This document shows, in pieces, positions 509-30,286 of a stretch of 32,000 nt of DNA. This DNA comes from Promethearchaeum syntrophicum (lineage in GTDB: Archaea > Asgardarchaeota > Lokiarchaeia > Sigyniarchaeales > Promethearchaeaceae). The translations under genes and the position numbers were made by a program. The notes below the pieces were generated by a model, which had not been told where the DNA came from, searched no databases, and saw nothing but the letters and a program-made list of their open reading frames with translations. The stretch covers positions 60,001-92,000 of the forward strand of contig NZ_CP042905.2 in assembly GCF_008000775.2 (NCBI RefSeq), written 5' to 3'. Each line of letters starts with the position of its first letter. Positions within the stretch are counted from its first letter, which is position 1.

Positions 509-1201
509 TTATTTCTTCTTTTTTCTTTTTTGTTTTACTTTCTTCCCTTTTTCTTTTTCATTTGGAACGTTATTGTTGATAAATCTTTGTGTAATATCTT
601 TTTCCAAACAATTTTGAGAATACTCACTTAAAATTTGATTCAATAAACCAATTCCATCAAAATCATAGGTTTTAGCTAAAGAAAGATCATTTTCAAATAG
701 CTTATCAATAATTGTCAAAGCTTCAACGGGAATATTTAAGTTAAAATCCATAGAAAAATAATCTTCCGTTTGTATTGAATCCAAAATCTTTGCTAATTGT
801 GGAGAAAATCCAGCAAAATTTGGGATAATCCCTTTCTTCATCCCTTTTAAAAGATCAGAATTGCTGGTATTTATTTCATCTAAGTAAATACTGAATAATT
901 CCGTAATTTCTGATAAAATTGCATGACTAGTTGTCGGATCGAATCCTGTCGATATTAATAATAAATCTACTTGCCCGATATGATCAAAATCGACCGTTTC
1001 AAAATCCAATAATGAATTTCCTAAACTTATTGATTTTAATTCATTCATTTTAGAACTTTGAAGAAAGGAGTTAGAAAAGGATTTTAGCGCGGAGAAAAAT
1101 GAGAGTAATAAACTTTCATCTATATTTTTATTGCTATAGTCTTTGGAATAAATAGGTATTCCATACTTATCTGCAATAAGTACTGCATCTATATCTCCCA
1201 T
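509..1201 (-). CDS. Hypothetical protein with an N-terminal longin/roadblock-like domain and a polybasic C-terminal tail
   Basis: The N-terminus reads IDAVLIADKYGIPIYSKDY...LLLSFFSALKSFSNSF...LKSISLGNSLLDFETVD...VDLLLIS. This follows the strand-strand-helix-strand-strand pattern of longin/roadblock (MglB, AP-sigma-like) folds. The tail is EKEKGKKVKQKRKKKK. Confidence 0.4.
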   Translation of the reverse strand: MGDIDAVLIADKYGIPIYSKDYSNKNIDESLLLSFFSALKSFSNSFLQSSKMNELKSISLGNSLLDFETVDFDHIGQVDLLLISTGFDPTTSHAILSEITELFSIYLDEINTSNSDLLKGMKKGIIPNFAGFSPQLAKILDSIQTEDYFSMDFNLNIPVEALTIIDKLFENDLSLAKTYDFDGIGLLNQILSEYSQNCLEKDITQRFINNNVPNEKEKGKKVKQKRKKKK

Positions 1202-1266: not shown

Positions 1267-2517
1267 TTAAAATATTGCTTTAACGTCTTTCAAAAATTCA
1301 GCAAGATGGGATTTTTTGATATGAGGCATTAATACAACTCTTAAGAGATTCCACTGTTTGAATACGCCTAATGCCCACCCTTTCTGTCGAAGTAGCGAAT
1401 TAAATCTATCTAAAGACATATTTGCTTTGGAAGACATCTGAATTCCTAAAACATTCATGGTTGGTTCAGTTGCGATTTTCAATTCAGGAATTTCCTCAAT
1501 TTGATCTTTAAGGTAATAAGTATTTTCTAAACTGTGTCTCACATTTTCTACGAACCCTTGTTTTCCCATAAACTGCATTAATCCCCAAAATGATATAGCT
1601 GAGGCTCCTGGGCGCGTTCCAAGAATATTATAAGATGGAAATGCTCCACCTGCGAGATAAGGTATTTCAAACTTGAAGGAATTTACATTCGAATCTTTAA
1701 CGAGTAATGATCCACTAGGATTAACCGACATTCCCATTTTGTGAGGATCCACTGTATAACTACAAATTTCTGGAACTTTTAGATTGTATGGAGGAAAATC
1801 ATAACCTAATTCTTCCATAAACGGAACAACCAATCCACCAAAGGCCGCATCTACGTGGAAATACTTATTATATTTCCCTGCTAACTTTCCAATTTTTTCA
1901 ATGGGATCAATCAATCCAAGTGCACTCGTTCCTAGTATTCCTACTAATGCTATTGTGTTATCATCAATTAACGATTCATAATGGTCGAAATCCAAATGAT
2001 AATTAGACAATAATTTAGCGCGCTTTACTTTTAATCCCATTAAAATTGCGGCTTTATCAAAACTATAATGCGCGGAATCGGGAATAACAATCGAGGGTTC
2101 TTTAATGTCTAAATTATTTTGTTTTGCCAAAAGCATTGCTATAATATTTGCTTCAGTACCACCAGAAGTAATATTTCCATCGACATATGGATCTCCCAAT
2201 AAATTTCCTAGCATCTCAATTACTTCTTTTTCTATTGCTGCGGTGCCAGGATTCAATCCGCGATCTCCAAGATTTCTATCTATAAATTTAGAATAAATAT
2301 AACGAGCAAAATCATGTGGGGGCGTTGTCATTGCTCCCAAAACTTTTCCGGATGAATAATCTAAATCAATTTTTAATCGGTCTTCTAATTCAGTTAAAAT
2401 TAATGATCTTGATTTTCCTTTGTGAAGTTTTGGAAAATTATTCTCTGAATATCCTATGAAACCTTCAATATTTTGTAGGATGTCGGTTAACGGTTTGCCT
2501 TTGTCACTTAGTTCCAT
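1267..2517 (-). CDS. mfnA: PLP-dependent group II amino-acid decarboxylase (MfnA-type tyrosine/aspartate decarboxylase), probably the beta-alanine source for CoA
   Basis: 416 aa. Carries SGGTEANI, a DAAFGG-type aspartate region and the DPHKMG PLP-lysine motif. Divergently adjacent to panB. Confidence 0.8.
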   Translation of the reverse strand: MELSDKGKPLTDILQNIEGFIGYSENNFPKLHKGKSRSLILTELEDRLKIDLDYSSGKVLGAMTTPPHDFARYIYSKFIDRNLGDRGLNPGTAAIEKEVIEMLGNLLGDPYVDGNITSGGTEANIIAMLLAKQNNLDIKEPSIVIPDSAHYSFDKAAILMGLKVKRAKLLSNYHLDFDHYESLIDDNTIALVGILGTSALGLIDPIEKIGKLAGKYNKYFHVDAAFGGLVVPFMEELGYDFPPYNLKVPEICSYTVDPHKMGMSVNPSGSLLVKDSNVNSFKFEIPYLAGGAFPSYNILGTRPGASAISFWGLMQFMGKQGFVENVRHSLENTYYLKDQIEEIPELKIATEPTMNVLGIQMSSKANMSLDRFNSLLRQKGWALGVFKQWNLLRVVLMPHIKKSHLAEFLKDVKAIF

Positions 2518-2665
2518 TGAATTTAATGCTCCAAATTTAGAAATTATCCGATTTCTAATTTTTTCTCGTGGAAAAATTGATTAAAACTCTTAGTTTGAAT
2601 TAGTATATACTGATCGAAACTACATGTTAAAATAAATTCTCCTTCAAAAGCAAATTGATAGGATA

Positions 2666-3610
2666 ATGTCTGAGAAGAAACAAAAAAAAATAACAGCTCA
2701 ATCGTTCATAACTATGAAAAAAAATGGTGAAAAAATAACAGTTTTGACATCTTACGATTATATCATGGCAAAAGCCCTAGATTCCGCAGGGATAGATGCT
2801 TTGTTAGTTGGAGATTCTATGGGAATGGTGATATATGGTCAAAATTCGACTCTTCCAGTCACTGTAGAAGATATTCTCAGACATACTCAAGCGGTTGCGC
2901 GCGGTACAAATCGTTCTATGGTTATCGCTGATATGCCGTTTATGAGTTTTTCAACACCAGACATTGCTTTGAAAAATGCGGGTAGATTTATCAAGGAAGG
3001 GAATGCCGACGCTGTTAAACTTGAAGGGGGAAGGGAAAGAGTAAAAAGCATTAAAATGATGATAGAATGTGGAATTCCTGTTATGGGACATTTAGGTTTA
3101 ACTCCCCAATATATTCATCAGCTTGGCGGATACAAACTTCAGGGCAAAAATGCTCATGCGGCAGAAAGATTGATTGAAGATGCATTACTTTTAGAAGAAG
3201 CGGGAGTATTTGCAATTGTTTTAGAAATGGTTCCATGGCAAGTTGCGAAAGAAATCAGTTCTCGGATTCAGATCCCCACAATTGGGATTGGAGCTGGGGC
3301 ATATTGTGATGGCCAAGTTCTCGTAGCTCAAGATATGATGGGATTTTCCGATAGAAAACCCTTTAAATTCGTAAAAAAATACGCTGATGTTTGGAATATA
3401 ATGGTAGATGCAGGAAAAAATTATATTAATGATATTAAAAATGGAGAGTTTCCTGCGCAGACCAATAGTTTTGAAATCCCAGAAGATGAATACCAGATGC
3501 TAAAGGATAGCATTGAACATAATCCCAAGCTCAAAAATACCGTTCATGAAGAAGGAAACATCCATAAAAAGGATAAAGAAACAGATATCGGATCGATTTA
3601 TTCCAATTAA
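2666..3610 (+). CDS. panB: 3-methyl-2-oxobutanoate hydroxymethyltransferase (ketopantoate hydroxymethyltransferase)
   Basis: Motifs LVGDSMGMV, ADMPFMSF, AVKLEGG, GHLGLTPQ and PTIGIGAG..CDGQVLV match PanB throughout. There is a C-terminal extension of about 45 aa. Confidence 0.92.
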   Translation: MSEKKQKKITAQSFITMKKNGEKITVLTSYDYIMAKALDSAGIDALLVGDSMGMVIYGQNSTLPVTVEDILRHTQAVARGTNRSMVIADMPFMSFSTPDIALKNAGRFIKEGNADAVKLEGGRERVKSIKMMIECGIPVMGHLGLTPQYIHQLGGYKLQGKNAHAAERLIEDALLLEEAGVFAIVLEMVPWQVAKEISSRIQIPTIGIGAGAYCDGQVLVAQDMMGFSDRKPFKFVKKYADVWNIMVDAGKNYINDIKNGEFPAQTNSFEIPEDEYQMLKDSIEHNPKLKNTVHEEGNIHKKDKETDIGSIYSN

Positions 3611-3675
3611 GATTGCAAAAACCCCAATTTTTTAAATCTCTTTTTATGATAGTCTTTGGAGATGATTTTTAATAT

Positions 3676-4566
3676 TTGAGTATTGAAAATATATATGTTG
3701 GCACTTGTGGATGGAGTTATGATGATTGGAAACAAGTTTTTTATCCCAATGCCCTAAAACAGCAAAATTTCTTAGAATTTTACTCAAATATATTCCGAAC
3801 TGTTGAAATTGATTCTAGTTTTTACCGAATTCCAAGTAAAAATACTGTTTTAAATTGGGCTAAAAATACTCCTATTGATTTTAGATTCAGTGCTAAACTT
3901 CCTCAAGAAATAACACATAAAGCAAAATTGGATTTGAATAAATCAGAAAAATTTTTGAAGTTATACTGGGATAATATTCTTCCTTTAGAAACAAGTGGAA
4001 AAATTATTGCACACCTAATACAATTACCTCCAAGTTTTACCTATGAAAAACATTGGGATAATTTGGAAAATTTCTTAAACCTATGGAACGAATTTCGAGA
4101 TATAAAAGAAAACAAACTTAGATGGTGTCCTGTGGTTGAATTTAGGCATAAATCATGGATGAAGGATAAAACTTTCAACCTATTAAAAGACACGAACACG
4201 GCTTATTGTGCAGTAATTGAACCAGAAATCCCTCCTCGTATGGATATTACTAGAAAAGATTTATTTTACTTAAGATTTCATGGATATGGAAAAAAACCTT
4301 GGTGGAATTATTCCTTTTCCGATAAAGAATTAGATCAATGGGCGGAGACTTTGAATGAGGTTTTTTCAAAAACCCCAAAAGCAGCGAAAGTAGTATATTT
4401 TAATAATCATTTTAGCGGTTATGCAGTTAAAAATGCCCAAGATTTAATGCCAAAAATTGGAGTAAAACCTGTTCAAAATTTAGAACTTATGCAAAAAAAG
4501 GTGACTCAAAAAGGAAATATTAATAAAGCCCGCCGATCCCTTGATAATTGGATAAATAAGAAGTAA
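3676..4566 (+). CDS. DUF72 (YecE/UPF0759) family protein
   Basis: The N-terminus VGTCGWSYDDWKQVFYP...FLEFYSNIFRTVEIDSSFYRIPS and the later YLRFHG motif are characteristic of DUF72. TTG start. The stop abuts the panE start. Confidence 0.8.
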   Translation: MSIENIYVGTCGWSYDDWKQVFYPNALKQQNFLEFYSNIFRTVEIDSSFYRIPSKNTVLNWAKNTPIDFRFSAKLPQEITHKAKLDLNKSEKFLKLYWDNILPLETSGKIIAHLIQLPPSFTYEKHWDNLENFLNLWNEFRDIKENKLRWCPVVEFRHKSWMKDKTFNLLKDTNTAYCAVIEPEIPPRMDITRKDLFYLRFHGYGKKPWWNYSFSDKELDQWAETLNEVFSKTPKAAKVVYFNNHFSGYAVKNAQDLMPKIGVKPVQNLELMQKKVTQKGNINKARRSLDNWINKK

Positions 4567-5541
4567 TTGATAAAAATGCGGATATTATTGATAGGCCCGG
4601 GCAGTATTGGGGTACTTTTTGGAGGAAAATTGGCCCTCGCAGGTAATAGAATTTTAATATATGCTCGCCCTCACTTTTCAACGATTTTGAAAGAACATCC
4701 ATTAAAATTAACAGATATCATCAATAAAGAACATGTGGTCCCGAATTTTGAAAAGGCACCTCCAATTCCAGAATTAATCAAATTAAGCCCACAAGAATTT
4801 CCAAAAATATGCTTAATTACCACTAAATCTTATGATTTAGAGAGCGTTTGCAGAGAATATCAGCCTGTTCTTAACAAAATTCCAATTATTGGATTAATTC
4901 AAAATGGAATTGGAAATGAAGAAATTATTGAGAATAACTATCCGAATTCAATAATTTTCCGTATAATCACATCCCATGGAGCAATGAGAGAAAATATTAG
5001 TCATATTATTCACACTGGTATAGGAAATACTTCAATTTGCCAAATTAAACCTCCATATGAAAACATCTCTGCCGAGAATAAACAGATTATAAAAGAATTT
5101 ACTGATAATCTTCAATATGCAGGTTTTGAATTAAAATTAAATAAAAATCCTTTGGAAGCTATTTGGAGAAAAGCCTTAACGAATATTGGTATAAATGCTA
5201 TAGGTGCTTTGACTCAACTAACTAATGGAGAACTATTAAAATCCGAATCTTTATTAAATTTAATTCGAAAAACGATAAATGAAGCAATATTAATTGCAAA
5301 TAAATTACAAATTCCCCTTGATCCCTCGTTTGATTATGTTCAAAACACACTTGAAGTTCTAAAAAATACAGCAACCAATAAGAACAGCATGTTACAAGAT
5401 GTGCTAAGAAAGAAAAAAACCGAAATTGAATTTTTAAATGAAAAGATAGTGAATTATGGAAAAAAAATGCATATTCCGACTCCAATAAATAAAACTCTAT
5501 CACAACTAATTCATGGATTAGAAAATTCTTATATTTTATGA
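4567..5541 (+). CDS. panE: 2-dehydropantoate 2-reductase (ketopantoate reductase)
   Basis: Rossmann N-terminus ILLIGPGSIGVLFGGKLALAG and C-terminal NSMLQDVLRKKKTEIEFLNEKIV..G....IPTPIN, typical of ApbA/PanE. The likely true start is the ATG at 4576 (MRILLIGPG). Confidence 0.82.
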   Translation: MIKMRILLIGPGSIGVLFGGKLALAGNRILIYARPHFSTILKEHPLKLTDIINKEHVVPNFEKAPPIPELIKLSPQEFPKICLITTKSYDLESVCREYQPVLNKIPIIGLIQNGIGNEEIIENNYPNSIIFRIITSHGAMRENISHIIHTGIGNTSICQIKPPYENISAENKQIIKEFTDNLQYAGFELKLNKNPLEAIWRKALTNIGINAIGALTQLTNGELLKSESLLNLIRKTINEAILIANKLQIPLDPSFDYVQNTLEVLKNTATNKNSMLQDVLRKKKTEIEFLNEKIVNYGKKMHIPTPINKTLSQLIHGLENSYIL

Positions 5542-6107
5542 TAATCTTTCTCATAAACAACCCAACTAGCTCGACGCCGCCGCACTTGAAAATCATGGTC
5601 GAGTTGGGCAACCAGAACGTGTTCAGGATCTCCATGAATATAACTTACATCAACAACAGGTTCGGATGCAGTTAATACTAGATCTTTGGGAACTGGCATC
5701 ATAATAGGAGTGTTCCCACAAATTTGACATTCAATTAGAATATATTTTGTCTCGGTTGTTTCTTTTTTTGTGAGTTCTTCTAATTGATTGCTATTTAATT
5801 TTATTTTAATTGCTTTTTTCATAGGGGGAGGGGGAATTGAAAGGTCAATCTCACTCATATCAAGTTTTGGTTTTTTTAATTTTGTAGATCCTGATATTGT
5901 CTTTAGATTTTTTGGGGATTTTGGAACTTTTGGAGGTGGGGGAGTAGCCTTTTGTGGATTTTTTAATCCGTTTTCAAAAGTTTCAAGAAGATATTTCCAA
6001 GTTTCTCTCCAATGAACAGGGCTATCGCTTTTTTGATTCAAATCATCCTTGATATCTTTCATTTTAACCCAAATTTCTAAAGGTATTGATATAGTTTTAT
6101 TTGCCAT
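5529..6107 (-). CDS. Hypothetical protein: Pro/Lys-rich linker and a C-terminal Cys-containing domain
   Basis: 192-aa ORF. It has a low-complexity PPPPKVPKSPK middle and a C-terminus reading ILIECQICGN...YIHGDPEHVLVAQLDHDFQVRRRR. No family recognised. Its 3' end overlaps panE convergently by 13 nt. Confidence 0.5.
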   Translation of the reverse strand: MANKTISIPLEIWVKMKDIKDDLNQKSDSPVHWRETWKYLLETFENGLKNPQKATPPPPKVPKSPKNLKTISGSTKLKKPKLDMSEIDLSIPPPPMKKAIKIKLNSNQLEELTKKETTETKYILIECQICGNTPIMMPVPKDLVLTASEPVVDVSYIHGDPEHVLVAQLDHDFQVRRRRASWVVYEKDYHKI

Positions 6108-14160: not shown

Positions 14161-14688
14161 TTGTCAACTAACTGGATATTCAAAACAATCGTTGCCGGTG
14201 CCGGCGGTGTAGGGAAGACTGCCTTAATTGAACGATATGTCTCAGGTGCTTTTCTAGAAGACCACAAGATGACGATAGGGGCAGCTTTTTCTGTTAAAGA
14301 TGTAAAATTAGATACTGGAGAAAATGTGCGCATGCAACTCTGGGACTTTGCAGGAGAAGAAAGATTTCGGTTTTTACTCGGAGATTATTGTAAAGGGGCT
14401 TCCGGTGCTTTTATTTGTTTCGATATAACGGATTATTCAACATTTGAACAAATACCTGAATGGTTAAGGATTATTCGTCAAAATGCGGGTATGATTCCTA
14501 TTATATTAGTAGGAAATAAATATGATTTGGATAACCATGAATTAGAATTAGCCACAGCAGATGAATACGCTGAAAGTGCCAAATGTTTGATGAATGTGTT
14601 TTGTTCTGCAAAGTTGGACTTAAATGTAGAACCTATGTTTGCTGCAATGGCAAAATGGTTAATATATTATGCAAATTTAGCGGATTAA
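14161..14688 (+). CDS. Rab/Ras-like small GTPase
   Basis: G1 GAGGVGKT, switch I TIG, G3 WDFAGEERF (compare WDTAGQERF), G4 GNKYD, G5 CSAK. TTG start. There is no C-terminal Cys lipidation motif (it ends YYANLAD). Confidence 0.85.
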   Translation: MSTNWIFKTIVAGAGGVGKTALIERYVSGAFLEDHKMTIGAAFSVKDVKLDTGENVRMQLWDFAGEERFRFLLGDYCKGASGAFICFDITDYSTFEQIPEWLRIIRQNAGMIPIILVGNKYDLDNHELELATADEYAESAKCLMNVFCSAKLDLNVEPMFAAMAKWLIYYANLAD

Positions 14689-16851: not shown

Positions 16852-17820
16852 ATGGGAAATTTACACGAAGTTGAAGTCTGGGTTCCTCACAGAATTTCAG
16901 GGTTTTTCCAAATGATGAATCCAAAAGAGAAAGTCCCACAAAGTGATATTTCAAAAATTGGTTCTAGAGGAGGAGGACCTGCTTTAACTGCTTTTGGAAA
17001 GACGAAAATAACTATATTGCCTACAGATGAAGAAATTGGGGAGGATCTAATAAACAAATTTAAAGTATTTTTAAATGGAAAAGAAAACACCTCAAAAGCA
17101 AAAACTTCCTGTAGTGTTGTTAATCGTATGGCACATTTATTACCAAAAAATGCTAATTTCTTAATAGAACACCACTTTGATCTTCCATTAGGAGCAGGTT
17201 TTGGATCCAGTGGAGCAGGTGCGTTGGGAATAGCCTATGGGTTGAATGACCTTTTTAAAATAGGTTTAACACCTTTAGAAGCTGCAAAATATGCACATAT
17301 TGCTGAAGTGGAGAATAAAACAGGATTAGGAACTGTTGGAGGTCAATTTGTTGGAGGTCTAACTATTATGATCGAACCCGGATATCCTTTCCAATATAAA
17401 AAAATACCAATTCCAGAAAATATTGAAATTATAATAGGATCTTGGGGATCAATAAATACTAAGAGTATTTTAACAAATCCAAACTATAAACAGCTCATTC
17501 ATCAAGTGGGAAAAGAAGCTATTAAAAAAATGAATGAACAATTTTCCCTTGCAAATTATATGAAAGTATGTAAATTTTTTCTAGAAAAAACAGAATTATT
17601 AGAGCGATTAGAATTACCGATTTTAAAAAACCTTATTGAATCTTTGGAAAAATTACCAATAATTGGCGCAAGTATGACCCAATTAGGTAAATCTGTTTTC
17701 TGTGTATGTGATAAACAAATTTCACCGCAAGTTGTTAAGGTTTTTAATCAATATAATCCACTATCGGGCACTAAAATTGTAAAAATTTGCAATTACGGTC
17801 CTAAAATTAAAAAAAAATAA
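16852..17820 (+). CDS. GHMP-family kinase, probable archaeal pantoate kinase
   Basis: GHMP motif PLGAGFGSSGAGALG. The N-terminus VWVPHRISGFFQ and the ~320-aa size fit the COG1829 archaeal pantoate kinase. Other CoA-pathway genes are nearby. Confidence 0.65.
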   Translation: MGNLHEVEVWVPHRISGFFQMMNPKEKVPQSDISKIGSRGGGPALTAFGKTKITILPTDEEIGEDLINKFKVFLNGKENTSKAKTSCSVVNRMAHLLPKNANFLIEHHFDLPLGAGFGSSGAGALGIAYGLNDLFKIGLTPLEAAKYAHIAEVENKTGLGTVGGQFVGGLTIMIEPGYPFQYKKIPIPENIEIIIGSWGSINTKSILTNPNYKQLIHQVGKEAIKKMNEQFSLANYMKVCKFFLEKTELLERLELPILKNLIESLEKLPIIGASMTQLGKSVFCVCDKQISPQVVKVFNQYNPLSGTKIVKICNYGPKIKKK

Positions 17821-17837: not shown

Positions 17838-19112
17838 CTATATTTTAAACCTGAGTATTGCGGCAATCCCGCCAAAAGTCGAAATAAGCATTGTTCCTTC
17901 CTCAGTTTCGGTTGATAATAATTCAATTTTCGTCCCTTGAATTTCTGCTAAATCACCCAATTCTTCAACCAAATCCAATTCTCCTTCTATTTGAATAAGG
18001 TTAGATTGACAAGAGGGACATGAGAGTGTATTTACGTGTTCATAGAATTCCCTAATTTTTTCGGTTGGAATCGTTTCATAATACTCAGTATTACATTTTC
18101 CACATTTTACATGAACACGAATAAGTTGAACCCCTTCAGATAAGAGCAATATATCAACTGCTCCCATTTCCAAAGCTTTTCGAACTTGTTTCTCTCCATA
18201 GGTTGCTAAATTGGTATCCTTTGAGATATTTTCCATAAAAATATTAAATACTTGTTTTTCTTGAATATAGCGTAAAGATTGGATTTTATCTTGTATTTTT
18301 ATTACAGTTTCTCTGATTCCTGCTTCACCAGAGTAACTAACGTCAATTAAATCGAGAACTTTATCTTTTAATCGATAATCTAACACTCCTTTCTTTACAA
18401 ACTTAGCTTTTGTCATACCTGCTCCGCTAACAAAAATCCCCTTAAGATCGTCAAATTCCATAAAAATAGAGTTAGCTGTTTCTCCAACACGTTTATAGAA
18501 ATTTTGAGCCCCTTCCTCGATAAGACGTTCCAATCTTCTCTGAGATTGCCCCCCAGCATGATGTTTACTATGAACACCCGATGTGAAAGTTTTAGAAATT
18601 TCTAAATGGGTTCCTCTTATCCATCCTATTGCTGCTTCTTTGTTTTCAATGTTGATTATCCCATATGCTCCTTTTTCTTGAACCATATCATATAATGGAT
18701 CAAGTAAAAATTCAGCAGCGCAATAATATTGGAAAGTTTTTAGTGGTTCAGGTGGTTCAATAATATATATTTCACTACTTTCAGTTCCCGGTTTATTGTC
18801 TTCCGGAACCTGTCCCGAATATATAATTAACCCATTTGGGGGGAATTCTTTAATATTTTTTAATTTTCCAAGTATAGCGGTAATGCTATCAATAACATTC
18901 TTCCTATTACCTTTAGATTTAATATTTGAGCTTTCTCCGATTTCTTTTTTTAAATAGGAAGTAACATCAGAGATTTTTTTAGTGGGAGGAATAGTTAAGG
19001 AAATGAGAGCTGTATGAAACCCTCTCTTATTTTTTAATATATCCAGGTATTTTTTTAGTAAATAACGTTTATAAGATGATTCTTCTTTTTCTTTTTTCTT
19101 AGATTCTGACAT
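17838..19112 (-). CDS. prf1: Peptide chain release factor aRF1
   Basis: NIKS motif (SSNIKSKG), YxCxxxF (YYCAAEF) and GGQ (HAGGQSQRR). The C-domain carries a CGKC...CPSC Zn-ribbon insertion. Confidence 0.95.
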   Translation of the reverse strand: MSESKKKEKEESSYKRYLLKKYLDILKNKRGFHTALISLTIPPTKKISDVTSYLKKEIGESSNIKSKGNRKNVIDSITAILGKLKNIKEFPPNGLIIYSGQVPEDNKPGTESSEIYIIEPPEPLKTFQYYCAAEFLLDPLYDMVQEKGAYGIINIENKEAAIGWIRGTHLEISKTFTSGVHSKHHAGGQSQRRLERLIEEGAQNFYKRVGETANSIFMEFDDLKGIFVSGAGMTKAKFVKKGVLDYRLKDKVLDLIDVSYSGEAGIRETVIKIQDKIQSLRYIQEKQVFNIFMENISKDTNLATYGEKQVRKALEMGAVDILLLSEGVQLIRVHVKCGKCNTEYYETIPTEKIREFYEHVNTLSCPSCQSNLIQIEGELDLVEELGDLAEIQGTKIELLSTETEEGTMLISTFGGIAAILRFKI

Positions 19113-19216: not shown

Positions 19217-20026
19217 GTGCTAATTTTGAGCAAGAATAATAAAAATGATGGAACCCCAAATATTCCAAATGATCATCCAAGAGCTGAAAGTCTCCATTAT
19301 CGTCATACGCTTGTAGATCGAATGTTTGAAAAAGTGGTGACACCCTCTGGTTTATGTGCTCACGGACGTGGAGAAGCTTTTGATTATCTCTTAGGAGAGC
19401 AAACAATCCCTCCCTCAGAAAAAGCAATGGAAGCTGCAGTTGCTTATCTTTTACTTGCTAAACACCCCGTTTTCAGCATAAATGGAAATGTTGCGGCTTT
19501 GGTTCCAGAATCTATTGTTGAGTTGGCTGAAGTTTTAGAAGCAGATTTAGAGATAAATATTTTTTATCAAGCTCCAGGGAGAATTGAGGCAATTACTTCA
19601 ATTTTGAAAAAAGCAGGAGCAAAAAAAATATTAGGATTGGGAGATATCCCACCAACTTCTTTATCCAATATAAGTTCTAATAGAAGAATAGTTGATCCTC
19701 GTGGAATTTTTTCAGCTGATGTTGTCCTTGTTCCATTGGAAGATGGTGATAGAACTGAAGTTCTTATAGAAAATGATAAAAAAGTTATAGCTATAGATTT
19801 AAATCCACTGAGTCGAACTGCTCAAAAAGCGAATATCACCATTGTTGATAATATTATTAGATGTATCCCGAAAATGGTAAAAATTGCTCGAAGAATGAAA
19901 AACCTAGAATCTGAAAAGATTAAAGTGATCGTGAATAATTTTAATCAGAAAAAGAATCTTGATGACTGCTTGGAATATATAATTAATTTCCTACAGAATT
20001 TAATGGAGAACCCAGATTCAAAATGA
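19217..20026 (+). CDS. 4-phosphopantoate--beta-alanine ligase (archaeal phosphopantothenate synthetase, COG1701/DUF137)
   Basis: HPRAESLHYRHTLVD...GLCAHGRGEAFDYLLGEQT and the NGNVAAL motif match the family as I recall it. GTG start. The stop overlaps the next gene's ATG (ATGA). Confidence 0.75.
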   Translation: MLILSKNNKNDGTPNIPNDHPRAESLHYRHTLVDRMFEKVVTPSGLCAHGRGEAFDYLLGEQTIPPSEKAMEAAVAYLLLAKHPVFSINGNVAALVPESIVELAEVLEADLEINIFYQAPGRIEAITSILKKAGAKKILGLGDIPPTSLSNISSNRRIVDPRGIFSADVVLVPLEDGDRTEVLIENDKKVIAIDLNPLSRTAQKANITIVDNIIRCIPKMVKIARRMKNLESEKIKVIVNNFNQKKNLDDCLEYIINFLQNLMENPDSK

Positions 20027-20781
20027 ATTTAATGAAACCTCTTGATTTCTCATTGCGCTCTTGTTCATATGATGATATCCCTGCGGTGATGGATGTTAAT
20101 GAGACTACTCTCCCCGAGAACTATCCATTATTCTTTTATGAGCAAATTCTTGAAAAATATCCTAAAACCTTTATCTTGGCATATAATAAGGATGATCCTA
20201 AACAAATAATTGGGTATATAATGTGGCGGGTAGAGAGAGGACTCTCTTCTTTCGGACTTGATCATGTTAAAAAAGCCCACTTGGTTTCATTAGCGGTGCT
20301 TCAAAATCATAGACGAAAAGGCATTGCAAATGAACTCCTTTTAAGGAGTATGGATTTAATTCGTGAATTTAAAATTTCAGAATATGTTTTAGAAGTCCGT
20401 GTTTCAAATTCAGGAGCAGTAAGATTATACAAGGAATTACATGATTTCAAAAAAATAAGGATTATCGGTCATTATTATCGCGATGGTGAAGATGCTTTTT
20501 ATATGGCAGCAATAAATAAGGAAAAAGAAACTAAGAAAATATCTAATCACGATTTAAGTGGTATGACAGACAAAGAAATTAAGCAGCATTTTTTAGACAA
20601 AAATCAAGGATATCTACTATATAACTGCCCAAATTGTAATTCTCTTCAAATAAAAGCTTTAAAATACTCTCTTGCTGGAACGGTAGATCCCGACAATAAA
20701 GAAACTTTAGATTGCGCTGATTGTAATGAAAAACTGGCTTTATATGATATCTCTCAAGGAAAATACAATTCATTTAAATAA
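20023..20781 (+). CDS. GNAT N-alpha-acetyltransferase (Ard1/RimI-like) with a C-terminal Zn-ribbon extension
   Basis: LAVLQNHRRKGIANELL (the Q/RxxGxA acetyl-CoA site) and YVLEVRVSN..A..LY. The C-terminal ~75 aa carry CPNCNS...CADCNEK. Confidence 0.75.
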   Translation: MNLMKPLDFSLRSCSYDDIPAVMDVNETTLPENYPLFFYEQILEKYPKTFILAYNKDDPKQIIGYIMWRVERGLSSFGLDHVKKAHLVSLAVLQNHRRKGIANELLLRSMDLIREFKISEYVLEVRVSNSGAVRLYKELHDFKKIRIIGHYYRDGEDAFYMAAINKEKETKKISNHDLSGMTDKEIKQHFLDKNQGYLLYNCPNCNSLQIKALKYSLAGTVDPDNKETLDCADCNEKLALYDISQGKYNSFK

Positions 20782-20812: not shown

Positions 20813-21865
20813 TTAATCTTCTTTTAGAGGTCTTGGTTCTTGATATTCAATTAAAATGTCTTTTAAATATTTCCGTAATTTCGAAATAATCTCATTTATT
20901 TGATTTTCAGCTAAAATACTCTTATCTAACGAACTTATGATTGAAAAATAATAATTAGCATAATATGGATTGCCAGATTTTTTCTCTTCCATAACACTTT
21001 TCATTTGCTCTTCTGAGATTTTTAAATCATCGTAAAGATGAAATTGGTAGCACAAATTCATAAACTCCCCATCAACACCCCGTATGCTTGTAACATCTAA
21101 ATTTTCATCTTCTAATTGGCCAAAAAACTCCAAATGACCGCTGATTATTTTATCTATTTTGTTTTCAAGTTCATAATCTTTACTTTTTGGATTAAATGTC
21201 TCCGAAATCACGAGACCCGTATGATCGAATAAAATTGCTTGAGCGATTTCAGTTTTATCCCGATATTCAATAATTTCATCTTGAATTTCATCATATCCGA
21301 TTAAATAACGCCTTAATCCGTTAGAGATCATATGGATAATGGTATACAAATTATATATACTTGTTAAATAAAACTGAAAATTATATTCTGGAAAAGTTTT
21401 TCTCAATAAACTCTTAACCATTGCCCTTCGGGCAATATATTCATCAGGATTTTCTTTAATAAATTCATAATCGGTTTTACTAAAACAGATATAAATAGGA
21501 AGATCTTTAGCATAACTTACTTTTTTTAATACTCCCAGAACTTCTTCTAAATATGAAATACTCTCACTAAAACGCATTTCATCCTGTATATCAATTAAAT
21601 ATATCAATAAATCAATACTCTCAAAATACATCTTGCGCTGGATATACATCTTGCGAAATTTACTTTGACCCCCCATATCAAAGAAATTTAATCGAAGGTC
21701 TAAAAAATCTCTTCTATAATAATCGATGCGTAAAGTTGGCTTTAAATTATGAATCTCGTCTTCATATCCATACATTCGTTTAAAGCTGACAAGCATGCTG
21801 GTTTTTCCAGCATTATCTAAACCACTTAATACTACTTTAATTGGTTTTTTCGTTTTATTGCTCAT
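20813..21865 (-). CDS. Arf/Sar-type small GTPase domain fused to a C-terminal roadblock/longin-like domain of about 165 aa
   Basis: G1 SGLDNAGKTS (Arf-family GLDxAGKT), G3 DMGGQ, and a degenerate G4 SKTD. The C-terminal half reads IAQAILFDHTGLVISETF...ISGHLEFFGQL...VTSIRGVDGEFMNLCYQF, which is roadblock-like. Confidence 0.65.
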   Translation of the reverse strand: MSNKTKKPIKVVLSGLDNAGKTSMLVSFKRMYGYEDEIHNLKPTLRIDYYRRDFLDLRLNFFDMGGQSKFRKMYIQRKMYFESIDLLIYLIDIQDEMRFSESISYLEEVLGVLKKVSYAKDLPIYICFSKTDYEFIKENPDEYIARRAMVKSLLRKTFPEYNFQFYLTSIYNLYTIIHMISNGLRRYLIGYDEIQDEIIEYRDKTEIAQAILFDHTGLVISETFNPKSKDYELENKIDKIISGHLEFFGQLEDENLDVTSIRGVDGEFMNLCYQFHLYDDLKISEEQMKSVMEEKKSGNPYYANYYFSIISSLDKSILAENQINEIISKLRKYLKDILIEYQEPRPLKED

Positions 21866-22966: not shown

Positions 22967-22987
22967 ACTCGTTCCTGATTAAGGTCC

Positions 22988-26085
<3,098 letters not shown>

Positions 26086-26178
26086 AATAGTCCGAGTGTT
26101 TGGGCTGGAAAAGGAACATGTGGGTCCTGGCTTTGAATCGGAATCATTGCAGAGCAGTCGAACGAGAGATCGTGCGAT

Positions 26179-28165: not shown

Positions 28166-30286
28166 TTATTTCATAATTTTGAGCCCATTTTTAAGCGAGA
28201 TGGAGAGCCTTTTATTGATTTTAGCGAGAATGGGATCGTTGGGGGGCAATTTTAGTTCGAGAATTTCTCTTTCACGGTGTCCTGCTTCCCATCCTAATCT
28301 TTCTTCTTCATCGCTGGTTAGGGATTTGAGATTGTCAGAATATTGCTGCGCGAGTTGGGAGGGGGATTTCCTATAATAGTTATAGAGTTCTTCTGGATTT
28401 CCATGTTGGTAATGTTCGATTAGATTTTTCCCTTTTGGGGTTAGATTGTCGATATTTAAAGCTTCTTCTTTAATTCCTTCCCAAACGGTGTAATCAAAGA
28501 TATTTTTTGGGATATTAGAGAGTGAGCGAAGGGGCAGACCCCAAATGGATAGGATTTGGAGTTTTTGTAATGATGCGATAAAATCAGGGATAATTTCGAA
28601 TTGATTTCCCCCTCCGATATCAATTTCCGTGAGATTCTTTAAGTTTTTCATGGATTCGGGCATGAATTGAAAATTATTGCCATAACACACGAGTCCTTCA
28701 ATGTTTGTTAGGCTTCCGAGCCACTTTGGGAGGATGGAGAGATTTGTATTTGTGAAAAGGAGACTTGTGAGATTTTTAAGATATTTGATGCTTGGGGGGA
28801 GTCGGTTGATCTTACATTCTTCTATATGAAGGGTTTCGAGCTTGGAAAATTTTTGAAATTTAATTTTTTTGATTTCGGATTCATTAAGTCGTGATAGATA
28901 GATTTCTTTAAGTTGTGTGAGTTTATTGATGGATGGCGGAATTTTCGTAGGAATAGGATTTATAATTGATATGGATGTCAAAGATGTGAGTGTGTCGATG
29001 TTTTCTGGGATAGGGAGCTTTGTTAAATTTAGTTGTGTGATTTGACCATGAGAGATTTTAATACTATTTGTGGTGCCTGCTTGTAATGAGAAGGATTTGT
29101 CATATTTTTCTTCAAGTTTTCTAATAAAATCTGCTTGATTTTTTAAGATAGGTTTATTTTTATATTTGGAGTATTGTTTTTGAATTTCTCTCTCTTTTTG
29201 AATTCTTCTTTCGATTGTATTAATAAATTTAATGATAAGATTTGGGGAAGCGCTTTTATGATATTGGTGGAAGTTTTTTTTAACATTGAAAGTACTAAAT
29301 TCAGCTAAATTTTGTAATTTTGAACGAAATAACTGGAGTTCTGATGTGCTGGCTTCCCACAATAATCGATTCCGATCTTCACCGGTTAGTGAGTTAAAAT
29401 CGTTAAGGAATTGTTTTGCGAGTTTTTGAGGGGATTTTTGGTAATATTGGAGTAATCCTTTAATGTCGCCGCTATTGAATAGTTTAGAACCTGTAGGAGA
29501 TAGAAAGAGATCTGAAGAGTCATTTTTATAGCTTTTTATGAATTCAGCGATAAATTTTTGAGGAATATTGGAGAGTGATCGGAGAGGGTTGTCGAAAAAA
29601 GATAGTTTTATTAAATTGGGGAATATAGAGATGAAATCTGGTATGGATTCAAACCTATTTTTAAAAATAACTAATTTCGAAAGATCAGTTAGATTTTTGA
29701 GAGTTTTCGGTAATGTGGAAATGGAACATTCAGAAATAGTAAGTTCATTAAGTGATAAAAGTTTTCCGAGTCTTTTTGGAATTGTTTTAATAGGGTTACC
29801 ATTAAGTGAGAGTTTTTTCAGATTTGGAATCTTTTCAATGTTCATCGGTAATTCGGAGAGACCACAATATGTGATATAAAGAATTTGAAGTTTCGAGAAG
29901 TGTTGGAATGGGAGATCGATTGATTTAAGTTTTATAGAATCAATATGAATCCTGATAAGGTTTGTGAGTTTGCTAAACGATGGCGGTAATTCGGAGATAT
30001 TTTGATTTTCAATGGTTAAATACTCAAGATTGGTCAAATTTCCGATGTTTTCGGGTAACTTATCGATTCTGTTAAAATTATTTTTTAAGTGTCCTCTAAT
30101 ACCTAGTGCAACAATGTTATAATCAACAACTCTATAACTCGCAGGTTTTCCTATGAGATGTTCAAGTTCGATAAGGACTTCTACATTGCTTTTAACCAAT
30201 GCTTGCCCGTTGTAGTTCATGAGTTCTTCGGATTGGTTTCGATGAATTTTAAGGACAGCGTTCTTTTCTTTGTTCTCCATTCTCAT
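28166..30286 (-). CDS. Leucine-rich-repeat protein with an internally duplicated architecture: two copies of an LRR block followed by a ~90-aa helical module
   Basis: 706 aa. Units of 22-24 aa of the form LxxLxxLxLxxNxLxxLPxxIxxL occur in two blocks. Each block is followed by PLRSLSNIP...YY(Q/R)KSP(Q/S)xLAxQ(F/Y)...SLT(G/S)(E/D)(D/E)xxRLxWEA. Confidence 0.85.
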   Translation of the reverse strand: MRMENKEKNAVLKIHRNQSEELMNYNGQALVKSNVEVLIELEHLIGKPASYRVVDYNIVALGIRGHLKNNFNRIDKLPENIGNLTNLEYLTIENQNISELPPSFSKLTNLIRIHIDSIKLKSIDLPFQHFSKLQILYITYCGLSELPMNIEKIPNLKKLSLNGNPIKTIPKRLGKLLSLNELTISECSISTLPKTLKNLTDLSKLVIFKNRFESIPDFISIFPNLIKLSFFDNPLRSLSNIPQKFIAEFIKSYKNDSSDLFLSPTGSKLFNSGDIKGLLQYYQKSPQKLAKQFLNDFNSLTGEDRNRLLWEASTSELQLFRSKLQNLAEFSTFNVKKNFHQYHKSASPNLIIKFINTIERRIQKEREIQKQYSKYKNKPILKNQADFIRKLEEKYDKSFSLQAGTTNSIKISHGQITQLNLTKLPIPENIDTLTSLTSISIINPIPTKIPPSINKLTQLKEIYLSRLNESEIKKIKFQKFSKLETLHIEECKINRLPPSIKYLKNLTSLLFTNTNLSILPKWLGSLTNIEGLVCYGNNFQFMPESMKNLKNLTEIDIGGGNQFEIIPDFIASLQKLQILSIWGLPLRSLSNIPKNIFDYTVWEGIKEEALNIDNLTPKGKNLIEHYQHGNPEELYNYYRKSPSQLAQQYSDNLKSLTSDEEERLGWEAGHREREILELKLPPNDPILAKINKRLSISLKNGLKIMK

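Follow-up and report, generated by a model that had tools for sequence, protein, structure and literature searches.

GTPases that carry a C-terminal roadblock domain directly after the G domain are familiar from the eukaryotic Rag/Gtr proteins (RagA/B, RagC/D, Gtr1/Gtr2), and a Rag-like class of this build has been published for Asgard archaea, both by Liu et al. 2020 and, as the ‘GR’ class (Rag-like GTPases that often carry an Arf annotation), for strain MK-D1 by Tran et al. 2024 (PMC10933270). The latter study classed the roadblock-fused GTPases of MK-D1 as Rag-like, reported a switch II insert for GR architectures and obtained AlphaFold2 (AF2) predictions in which the GR proteins dimerise via their roadblock domains. 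A 32,000-nucleotide stretch of the Promethearchaeum syntrophicum genome (NCBI RefSeq assembly GCF_008000775.2, contig NZ_CP042905.2, positions 60,001 to 92,000 of the forward strand; hereafter the window, with positions counted from its first nucleotide) contains a gene (20813-21865, minus strand) that very probably encodes an Asgard Rag-like small GTPase of this GR architecture, a G domain followed by a roadblock domain.

Paralogues have been crystallised, and three Protein Data Bank (PDB) entries are public: 8yl2 (LokiRagO), with the title ‘Homo Tetrameric RagA-like small GTPase from Asgard Lokiarchaeota (LokiRagO)’, and 8zla and 9m28 (LokiRagM). A literature search with 8YL2/8ZLA/9M28 and ‘LokiRagO/LokiRagM’ found no paper, and the PDB titles are the basis for what is said of these entries here. 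In a noisy optical character recognition (OCR) text of the Tran et al. 2024 supplement, LokiRagO and LokiRagM match rows WP_147663357.1 and WP_147662243.1, and no peptides of the window protein were found in the MK-D1 alignment of the same noisy text. Homology to both paralogues extends over the full length of the window protein (phmmer E-values 1.8e-22 for 8yl2 and 2.4e-19 for 8zla), and all share the phylum, the G domain plus roadblock domain, a lengthened switch II, an xKxD G4 motif and a T(S/T)IY G5 motif. However, structural alignment with 8yl2 gives only about 24% identity, and the window protein therefore belongs to a different orthogroup. The first G4 residue is Ser in the window protein but His in LokiRagO and LokiRagM, the P-loop is GLDNAGKT compared with GLDNSGKT in 8yl2 and GLNYAGKT in 8zla, a 31-residue helical insertion lies between β4 and β5, and the N-terminal extension of 8yl2 (where the match starts at chain residue 42) is missing. 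The window protein represents an uncharacterised orthogroup of the known GR class, marked by Ser at the first G4 position, a P-loop identical to that of Arl and a helix inserted in the roadblock domain. An initial annotation, made from the sequence, had called the pairing of Arf-like G1/G3 motifs with a Rag-type architecture an unusual mix, which is overstated given that this pairing is the published GR class (PMC10933270), represented by crystal structures 8yl2, 8zla and 9m28.

Gene and domain architecture

The open reading frame (ORF) begins with ATG and encodes 350 amino acids, with the stop codon (20813-20815) included in its end coordinate. Outside the rRNA gene the G+C content of the window is ~29-33%, and in such AT-rich DNA a 1 kb ORF is already improbable by chance. 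A database search gave 161 homologues (E ≤ 1e-3), of which the nearest are 82-86% identical along their full length, and an alignment-based scan of GTDB species-representative genomes identified 382 related loci, with titles overwhelmingly from Promethearchaeota and other Asgard archaea (Thor-, Hod- and Hermodarchaeota). The nearest genomic relatives are two ‘Promethearchaeum sp.’ metagenome-assembled genomes (82-83% identity); an exact-peptide scan of GTDB genomes with peptides of the protein gave no confirmed relative. The start (MSN..KK.IKVV) is kept in the nearest homologues. This is a genuine gene and not a chance ORF, its neighbourhood too being conserved in relatives (see below). One related locus, a Rag-like GTPase gene (5220-5861 of DATKTW010000161.1; 37% identity over residues 6-222), lies on a contig assigned in binning to ‘Candidatus Nanopelagicaceae bacterium’. 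As nearly all other titled matches are from Asgard archaea, this contig is probably mis-binned rather than the source of a bacterial homologue.

The full-length AlphaFold model has a predicted local distance difference test score (pLDDT) of 89.5 and a predicted template modelling score (pTM) of 0.86. The best full-length Foldseek match is 8yl2 (E 1.5e-20, template modelling (TM) score 0.82), with human RagA (6s6a_A; E 2.9e-18, TM 0.76), Saccharomyces cerevisiae Gtr1 (4arz_A, TM 0.75; 3r7w) and Schizosaccharomyces pombe Gtr1 (8fw5_D) also recovered. About 330-340 columns were aligned with each of 8yl2, RagA and Gtr1, spanning both domains, compared with ~180 for Arf/Arl chains, and superposition on RagA/Gtr1 gave TM 0.72-0.78 normalised to target. 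Because these alignments extend across both domains, the inter-domain geometry of the model is Rag-like, with the roadblock domain predicted to pack against the G domain as in RagA and Gtr1, and the Rag/Gtr organisation proposed by the initial annotation is upheld. The arrangement of domains in the monomeric paralogue (8zla and 9m28) differs from that of the model (TM 0.42-0.46, root-mean-square deviation 17-18 Å). No MglA chains were present among the 50 full-length Foldseek matches listed.

The G domain (residues 1-187; 21305-21865, minus strand, as are all features of the protein below) was delimited from Pfam matches and DSSP of the model. The G1 motif or P-loop (GLDNAGKT, residues 15-22; 21800-21823), the G2 motif in switch I (LKPTL, residues 41-45; 21731-21745), the G3 or Walker B motif (DMGGQ, residues 63-67; 21665-21679), aligning with DCGGQ of RagA and containing the candidate catalytic Gln67, and the G4 motif (SKTD, residues 129-132; 21470-21481) can all be read in the translation, among them the GLDNAGKT, DxGGQ and SKTD motifs that the initial annotation had quoted. 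G5 (TSIY, residues 168-171; 21353-21364) aligns with TSIW of RagA. In an alignment of 57 homologues, to which all conservation counts given here refer, G15, N18 and K21 of the P-loop, P43 and T44 of switch I, G65 and G66, and K130 and D132 of G4 are invariant, while D63 and Q67 are each found in 56 of the 57. T44 occupies the position that coordinates Mg2+ in small GTPases. Residues of G5 are somewhat more variable (T in 46, S in 51, I in 49 and Y in 46 homologues). As judged from this alignment, the nucleotide-binding and catalytic residues expected of a G domain are complete and conserved.

G4 is a Rag-type xKxD variant of NKxD, aligning with HKMD of RagA. Its first position is Ser in 43 homologues, His in 12 and Thr or Asn in one each, so that Ser/His replaces Asn next to invariant K130 and D132, and the description of this motif as degenerate does not hold. 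Guanine specificity is expected to be normal, since the base-reading Asp of other small GTPases is kept (D132), in agreement with PDB titles according to which the nucleotide in the crystals is GTP for 8yl2 and 9m28 and GDP for 8zla. Alignments with Arl3 and RagA delimit a lengthened switch II (SKFRKMYIQRKMYF, residues 68-81; 21623-21664), three residues longer than that of Arl3 (in the phmmer alignment a gap in Arl3 lies opposite QRK of the query). The long switch II of RagA aligns with it, with only two extra residues, and the spacing between Q67 and D92 is steady across the homologues (26-27 residues). The N-terminus (MSNKTKKPIK) is short, basic and Lys-rich, with a median of only eight residues ahead of the K10 column in the homologues. 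In the AlphaFold model (DSSP) β1 runs from residue 7, leaving ~6-9 residues before it and no predicted helix, so an Arf-type amphipathic helix is lacking. Residue 2 is Ser rather than Gly (Gly2 occurs in 5 of 57 homologues), and the protein sequence contains no C-terminal Cys or lipidation motif. The G domain and the roadblock part are of strongly different charge, with calculated isoelectric points of 9.3 (residues 1-187) and 4.5 (residues 188-350).

The remainder of the protein (residues 188-350; 20816-21304) consists of a roadblock domain (~188-340), assigned from Foldseek and from DSSP of the full-length model and of a model of the C-terminal half alone, followed by a disordered tail of ~10 residues. 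Both models give the order α1, β1-β2, α2, β3-β4, inserted helix, β5, α3, and the roadblock-like strand noted initially (IAQAILFDHTGLVISE) is present in the translation at residues 207-222. Between β4 and β5 a helical insertion (residues 276-304; 20954-21040), modelled as a helix at 285-296, is a predicted departure from the canonical roadblock fold; the segment between residues 275 and 305, 31 residues in the window protein, varies from 8 to 44 residues across the homologues. The C-terminal half modelled in isolation (pLDDT 84.8, pTM 0.81) gave 40 Foldseek matches at E ≤ 1e-3, all of which are MglB, RagA/Gtr1 chains or a Thorarchaeota roadblock protein (7f8m); the other matches listed include dynein LC7/roadblock chains, a crystal chain of the RagA C-terminal domain (6ehr_F) and the Asgard paralogue 9m28. 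On these modelled structures the C-terminal half has a roadblock fold, as first suggested, matching MglB, RagA/Gtr1, archaeal roadblock and LC7 proteins. The fold is that of MglB and the Roadblock-LC7 family (PF03259), which includes stand-alone Asgard proteins (7f8m, 7f8f), but the window domain is only 9-11% identical to MglB/Roadblock-LC7, is fused to a GTPase rather than free-standing and carries the inserted helix.

Sequence searches with the same region gave almost no signal. The C-terminal half of the window protein matched no Pfam family, including Robl_LC7, only one of 25 homologues scanned singly gave even a weak Robl_LC7 match (E 0.073), and phmmer with residues 97-350 found no match in PDB. 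Of the Pfam families that the initial annotation had named for profile searches of each half, Gtr1_RagA and Arf were matched but Robl_LC7 was not, and since sequence searches gave no significant match, the roadblock assignment rests on predicted structure.

Rag and Arf affinities and alternative readings

Pfam assigned the protein to Gtr1_RagA (PF04670; 73.4 bits, E 2.5e-20, residues 10-230, profile positions 1-219 of 232, cut-off 22) and, over residues 4-112 only, to Arf (PF00025; 71.1 bits, E 1e-19, profile positions 10-110 of 174), while NCBIfam returned only a generic small_GTP domain, below cut-off. When the protein was split, residues 1-96 scored 61.4 bits with Arf and 43.1 bits with Gtr1_RagA, and residues 97-224 had no match to Arf and 19.4 bits (E 7.7e-4) with Gtr1_RagA. 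For calibration, Gtr1_RagA and Arf gave 337 and 34 bits with human RagA, 94 and 67 bits with the Asgard paralogue 8yl2, and 73 and 71 bits with the window protein, which is therefore at best a distant member of Gtr1_RagA. BLASTP against human RagA (25% identity over 236 residues, E 1e-10) pairs SKTD with HKMD, TSIY with TSIW and LFDHTGLVIS with LFERATFLVIS.

In single-sequence phmmer searches of PDB the top matches outside Asgard archaea were Arl3 and Arl2. When a family profile is used instead, RagA and Gtr1 pass Arl3: the best PDB matches are 8yl2 (198.8 bits, E 1.4e-57, profile positions 7-318) and 8zla (154 bits, E 5.3e-44), followed by RagA (99.6 bits, aligned into the roadblock domain), Gtr1 (92), Arl3 (86) and RagC (71), with neither MglA nor any other prokaryotic GTPase among the best 60 matches. 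Together with the Pfam scores, these matches place the G domain with Rag/Arf families and not with ordinary prokaryotic GTPases, as had been proposed.

Several results weigh against a Rag-like GTPase of GR architecture. The single-sequence Arf score (71.1) nearly equals that of Gtr1_RagA (73.4), and phmmer ranks Arl3 (1e-12) above RagA (8e-9). The C-terminal half has no significant family match by sequence alone, and a profile built from 25 C-terminal halves gave only marginal matches in PDB (E 0.035-0.05), the best of them to the RagA C-terminal domain (6ehr_F, 5x6v_F) and the archaeal Robl_LC7 protein 7f8f_A, with LLFDhTGLvI opposite LLFERATFLVI of RagA. No conserved neighbouring partner gene was found in the window or at syntenic loci. 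The solved paralogues are, according to PDB titles, one homotetramer and one monomer, and a Rag-like dimer is accordingly not to be assumed.

The features shared with Rag/Gtr proteins extend beyond architecture, and include the non-Asn xKxD G4, the TSI(W/Y) G5, the long switch II, the lack of a C-terminal lipidation motif, a Gtr1_RagA match above cut-off across G domain and linker, and superposition along the whole chain. The extra roadblock helix is not a feature of Rag/Gtr proteins, and RagA differs in its P-loop (GKSGSGKT, compared with the Arl-type GLDNAGKT) and in its far higher Gtr1_RagA score. By sequence comparison the similarity is a mosaic, in which G1 to G3 (P-loop, switch I/interswitch) score nearer to Arf/Arl, and G4, G5, the lengthened switch II and the linker are of Rag/Gtr type, matching only Gtr1/RagA. 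On these scores the Asgard Rag-like proteins lie between the Arf and Rag families, with the window orthogroup the most evenly placed of the three measured.

An Arl2/3-identical P-loop, Arf-leaning G1 to G3, Rag-type G4, G5 and switch II, a roadblock domain and near-equal family scores together invite the reading that this orthogroup is a surviving intermediate between the Arf/Arl and Rag lineages, which we consider unlikely. If true, both eukaryotic families would derive from one roadblock-fused Asgard GTPase, with Arf having lost the roadblock domain and acquired an N-terminal helix.

Less probable again is a fused MglA-MglB-type polarity module, an organisation to which the initial annotation had also drawn attention, in which the roadblock domain would serve as a built-in GTPase-activating protein (GAP), in cis or across a dimer, as MglB does for MglA. 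MglB chains (6hjm, 3t1r, 1j3w; TM 0.70-0.78 normalised to target, 9-11% identity) are indeed the top Foldseek matches of the isolated domain, and MglB is described as a roadblock-fold GAP for a small GTPase (PMC9481161). However, the isolated domain matches RagA/Gtr1 chains nearly as closely (E 3.7e-5, compared with 3.1e-5 for MglB), so the MglB matches reflect the generic roadblock fold, and the absence of MglA both from the best 60 profile matches and from the full-length Foldseek matches listed indicates that the G domain is not MglA-like. The two-domain model superposes on RagA/Gtr1 with Rag inter-domain geometry. In that geometry, as known from Rag structures, the roadblock domain lies away from the nucleotide-binding pocket and has no GAP role. 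In MK-D1 the MglA-like GTPases are a separate, smaller group (Tran et al., PMC10933270).

It is very unlikely that the protein is a genuine member of the Arf family with an added C-terminal domain, working, like Arf, Arl and Sar, through an N-terminal amphipathic helix that GTP binding exposes and that inserts into membranes. Arl3 has the identical P-loop GLDNAGKT and the DxGGQ motif, the Arf score is substantial and residues 1-96 favour Arf over Gtr1_RagA, and several homologues are named ‘ADP-ribosylation factor-like protein’ in their sources. However, the Arf hidden Markov model (HMM) covers only the first ~110 residues, ending at residue 112, and G4, G5 and the C-terminal part of the G domain have no Arf match; G4 is SKTD rather than NKxD, and G5 aligns with TSIW of RagA. 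The label ‘Arfl’, applied to Asgard proteins, reportedly goes back to Klinger et al. 2016 (Molecular Biology and Evolution, MBE). In published trees Asgard ‘Arfl’ proteins do not fall in the Arf clade but close to Rag and Rup2 (PMC11914678). Unlike Arf/Arl/Sar proteins, the window protein has neither an N-terminal amphipathic helix nor a myristoylation site (Ser, not Gly, at residue 2), and it has a switch II that is three residues longer, as in RagA, and a roadblock domain. The top full-length structural matches are Rag/Gtr, with Arf/Arl chains aligning over the G domain portion only (~180 columns).

To our knowledge no TOR kinase has been reported in archaea, which weighs against the least probable reading of all, a direct functional orthologue of RagA/B or RagC/D acting as an obligate heterodimer on a Ragulator/EGO-like scaffold and passing a nutrient signal to a TOR-like kinase. 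Although the two-domain architecture and fold are the same, roadblock/longin and LAMTOR1-like proteins are numerous in Asgard genomes (bioRxiv 10.1101/2020.10.19.343400) and one Rag-like operon pair of MK-D1 is predicted to heterodimerise (PMC10933270), such a role is hard to reconcile with a Gtr1_RagA score of 73 against 337 bits and 25% identity to RagA, the lack of an adjacent paralogous GTPase or roadblock gene in the window and at syntenic loci, solved paralogues that are a homotetramer and a monomer rather than heterodimers (PDB titles), and a conserved LAMTOR1-like/DENN operon whose GTPase is Rab-like, not Rag-like (Liu et al., bioRxiv 10.1101/2020.10.19.343400).

Genomic neighbourhood

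The Rag-like gene is monocistronic, converging on a GNAT acetyltransferase gene (20023-20781, plus strand) and divergent from a 23S rRNA gene (22982-26107, plus strand), from which it is separated by a 1.1 kb spacer. Farther along are genes for phosphopantothenate synthetase, aRF1, a GHMP kinase and a member of the amino-acid-kinase family. This block, including the adjacency to 23S rRNA, is kept in two relatives, loci L002 (Rag-like protein 83% identical) and L005 (46% identical); the 23S rRNA gene lies at 1-2095 in L001, 1791-4911 in L002 and 84-3266 in L005, the adjacency thus being maintained at 82-83% identity of the Rag-like protein and even at 46%. Neither 16S nor 5S rRNA was detected anywhere in the 32 kb, so the 23S gene appears to be unlinked. 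The 23S match spans 3126 nt, compared with 2987 positions in the model, which suggests insertions or expansion segments.

None of these neighbours points to a functional partner, and no second GTPase, roadblock, longin, LAMTOR-like or kinase gene is linked to the Rag-like gene as a partner in the window or at syntenic loci. In MK-D1 a Rag-like gene pair lies in an operon and its products are predicted to heterodimerise (Tran et al., PMC10933270); in contrast to that pair, in which each gene has a second GTPase beside it, the window gene stands alone.

Elsewhere in the window, a single-domain small GTPase of 175 amino acids (14161-14688, plus strand) is Ras/Rab-like (Pfam Ras 5.4e-41, Roc 2.4e-28) and typical of the expanded Asgard GTPase repertoire. 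A 230-amino-acid ORF (509-1201, minus strand) has a sub-threshold match to Fuz_longin_1, the first longin of FUZ/MON1/HPS1 (E 1.4e-4, 22.5 bits, cut-off 26.1), and may encode a longin-domain protein. Leucine-rich repeats (LRR_14 7.5e-34, LRR_4, LRR_8) make up nearly all of a 706-amino-acid protein encoded at 28166-30286 (minus strand).

Scattered genes at 1267-5541, 16852-17820 and 19217-20026 belong to Pfam families fitting pantothenate/coenzyme A synthesis, namely a pyridoxal phosphate (PLP)-dependent decarboxylase, ketopantoate hydroxymethyltransferase, ketopantoate reductase, a GHMP-family kinase and phosphopantothenate synthetase; from this context the GHMP-family kinase is presumably pantoate kinase. 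The start of the GNAT gene and the end of the phosphopantothenate synthetase gene share four bases. The GNAT protein is extended at its C-terminus by a segment bearing two CxxC pairs (CPNC...CADC), kept in L005 (5242-6012), which looks like a zinc ribbon. In aRF1 (17838-19112, minus strand) domain 3 measures 143 residues, compared with a 106-position Pfam profile, and includes a CxxC...CxxC arrangement (CGKC...CPSC), also kept in L005 (6917-8236), that suggests a zinc-ribbon insertion.

Predicted function and wider meaning

As a Rag-like GTPase of GR architecture, the protein would act as a GTP/GDP switch in which cycling alters switch I and the long switch II. D132 and K130 would confer guanine specificity, T44 would sense Mg2+ and the γ-phosphate, and Q67 would take part in catalysis. 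Intrinsic hydrolysis is probably slow and GAP-assisted, as was inferred for the roadblock-fused GTPases of MK-D1 from the absence of the MglA-type switch I arginine (Tran et al. 2024, PMC10933270). The roadblock domain would provide a surface for self-association or for binding roadblock/longin proteins, as in Rag/Gtr, MglB and LAMTOR proteins, and such roadblock/longin proteins are plentiful in Asgard genomes of this kind. A signalling or membrane-associated complex would then assemble or come apart according to the nucleotide state. Because the protein has neither a lipidation signal nor an Arf-type amphipathic helix, any recruitment to membranes would be via partners, and because the gene stands alone, a partner would be encoded elsewhere or the protein would form homo-oligomers.

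The current picture is unaltered by this gene, since the architecture, the Arf-like annotation, the switch II insert and the structures of paralogues are already public. What the gene adds to the known class is one well-conserved, syntenically anchored orthogroup, which, because its Arf/Rag balance is unusually even, could help to resolve the relation between Arf and Rag. Roadblock-fused Rag-like GTPases are among the eukaryotic signature proteins cited for the view that the eukaryotic regulatory toolkit of GTPase, roadblock and longin domains partly predates eukaryogenesis.

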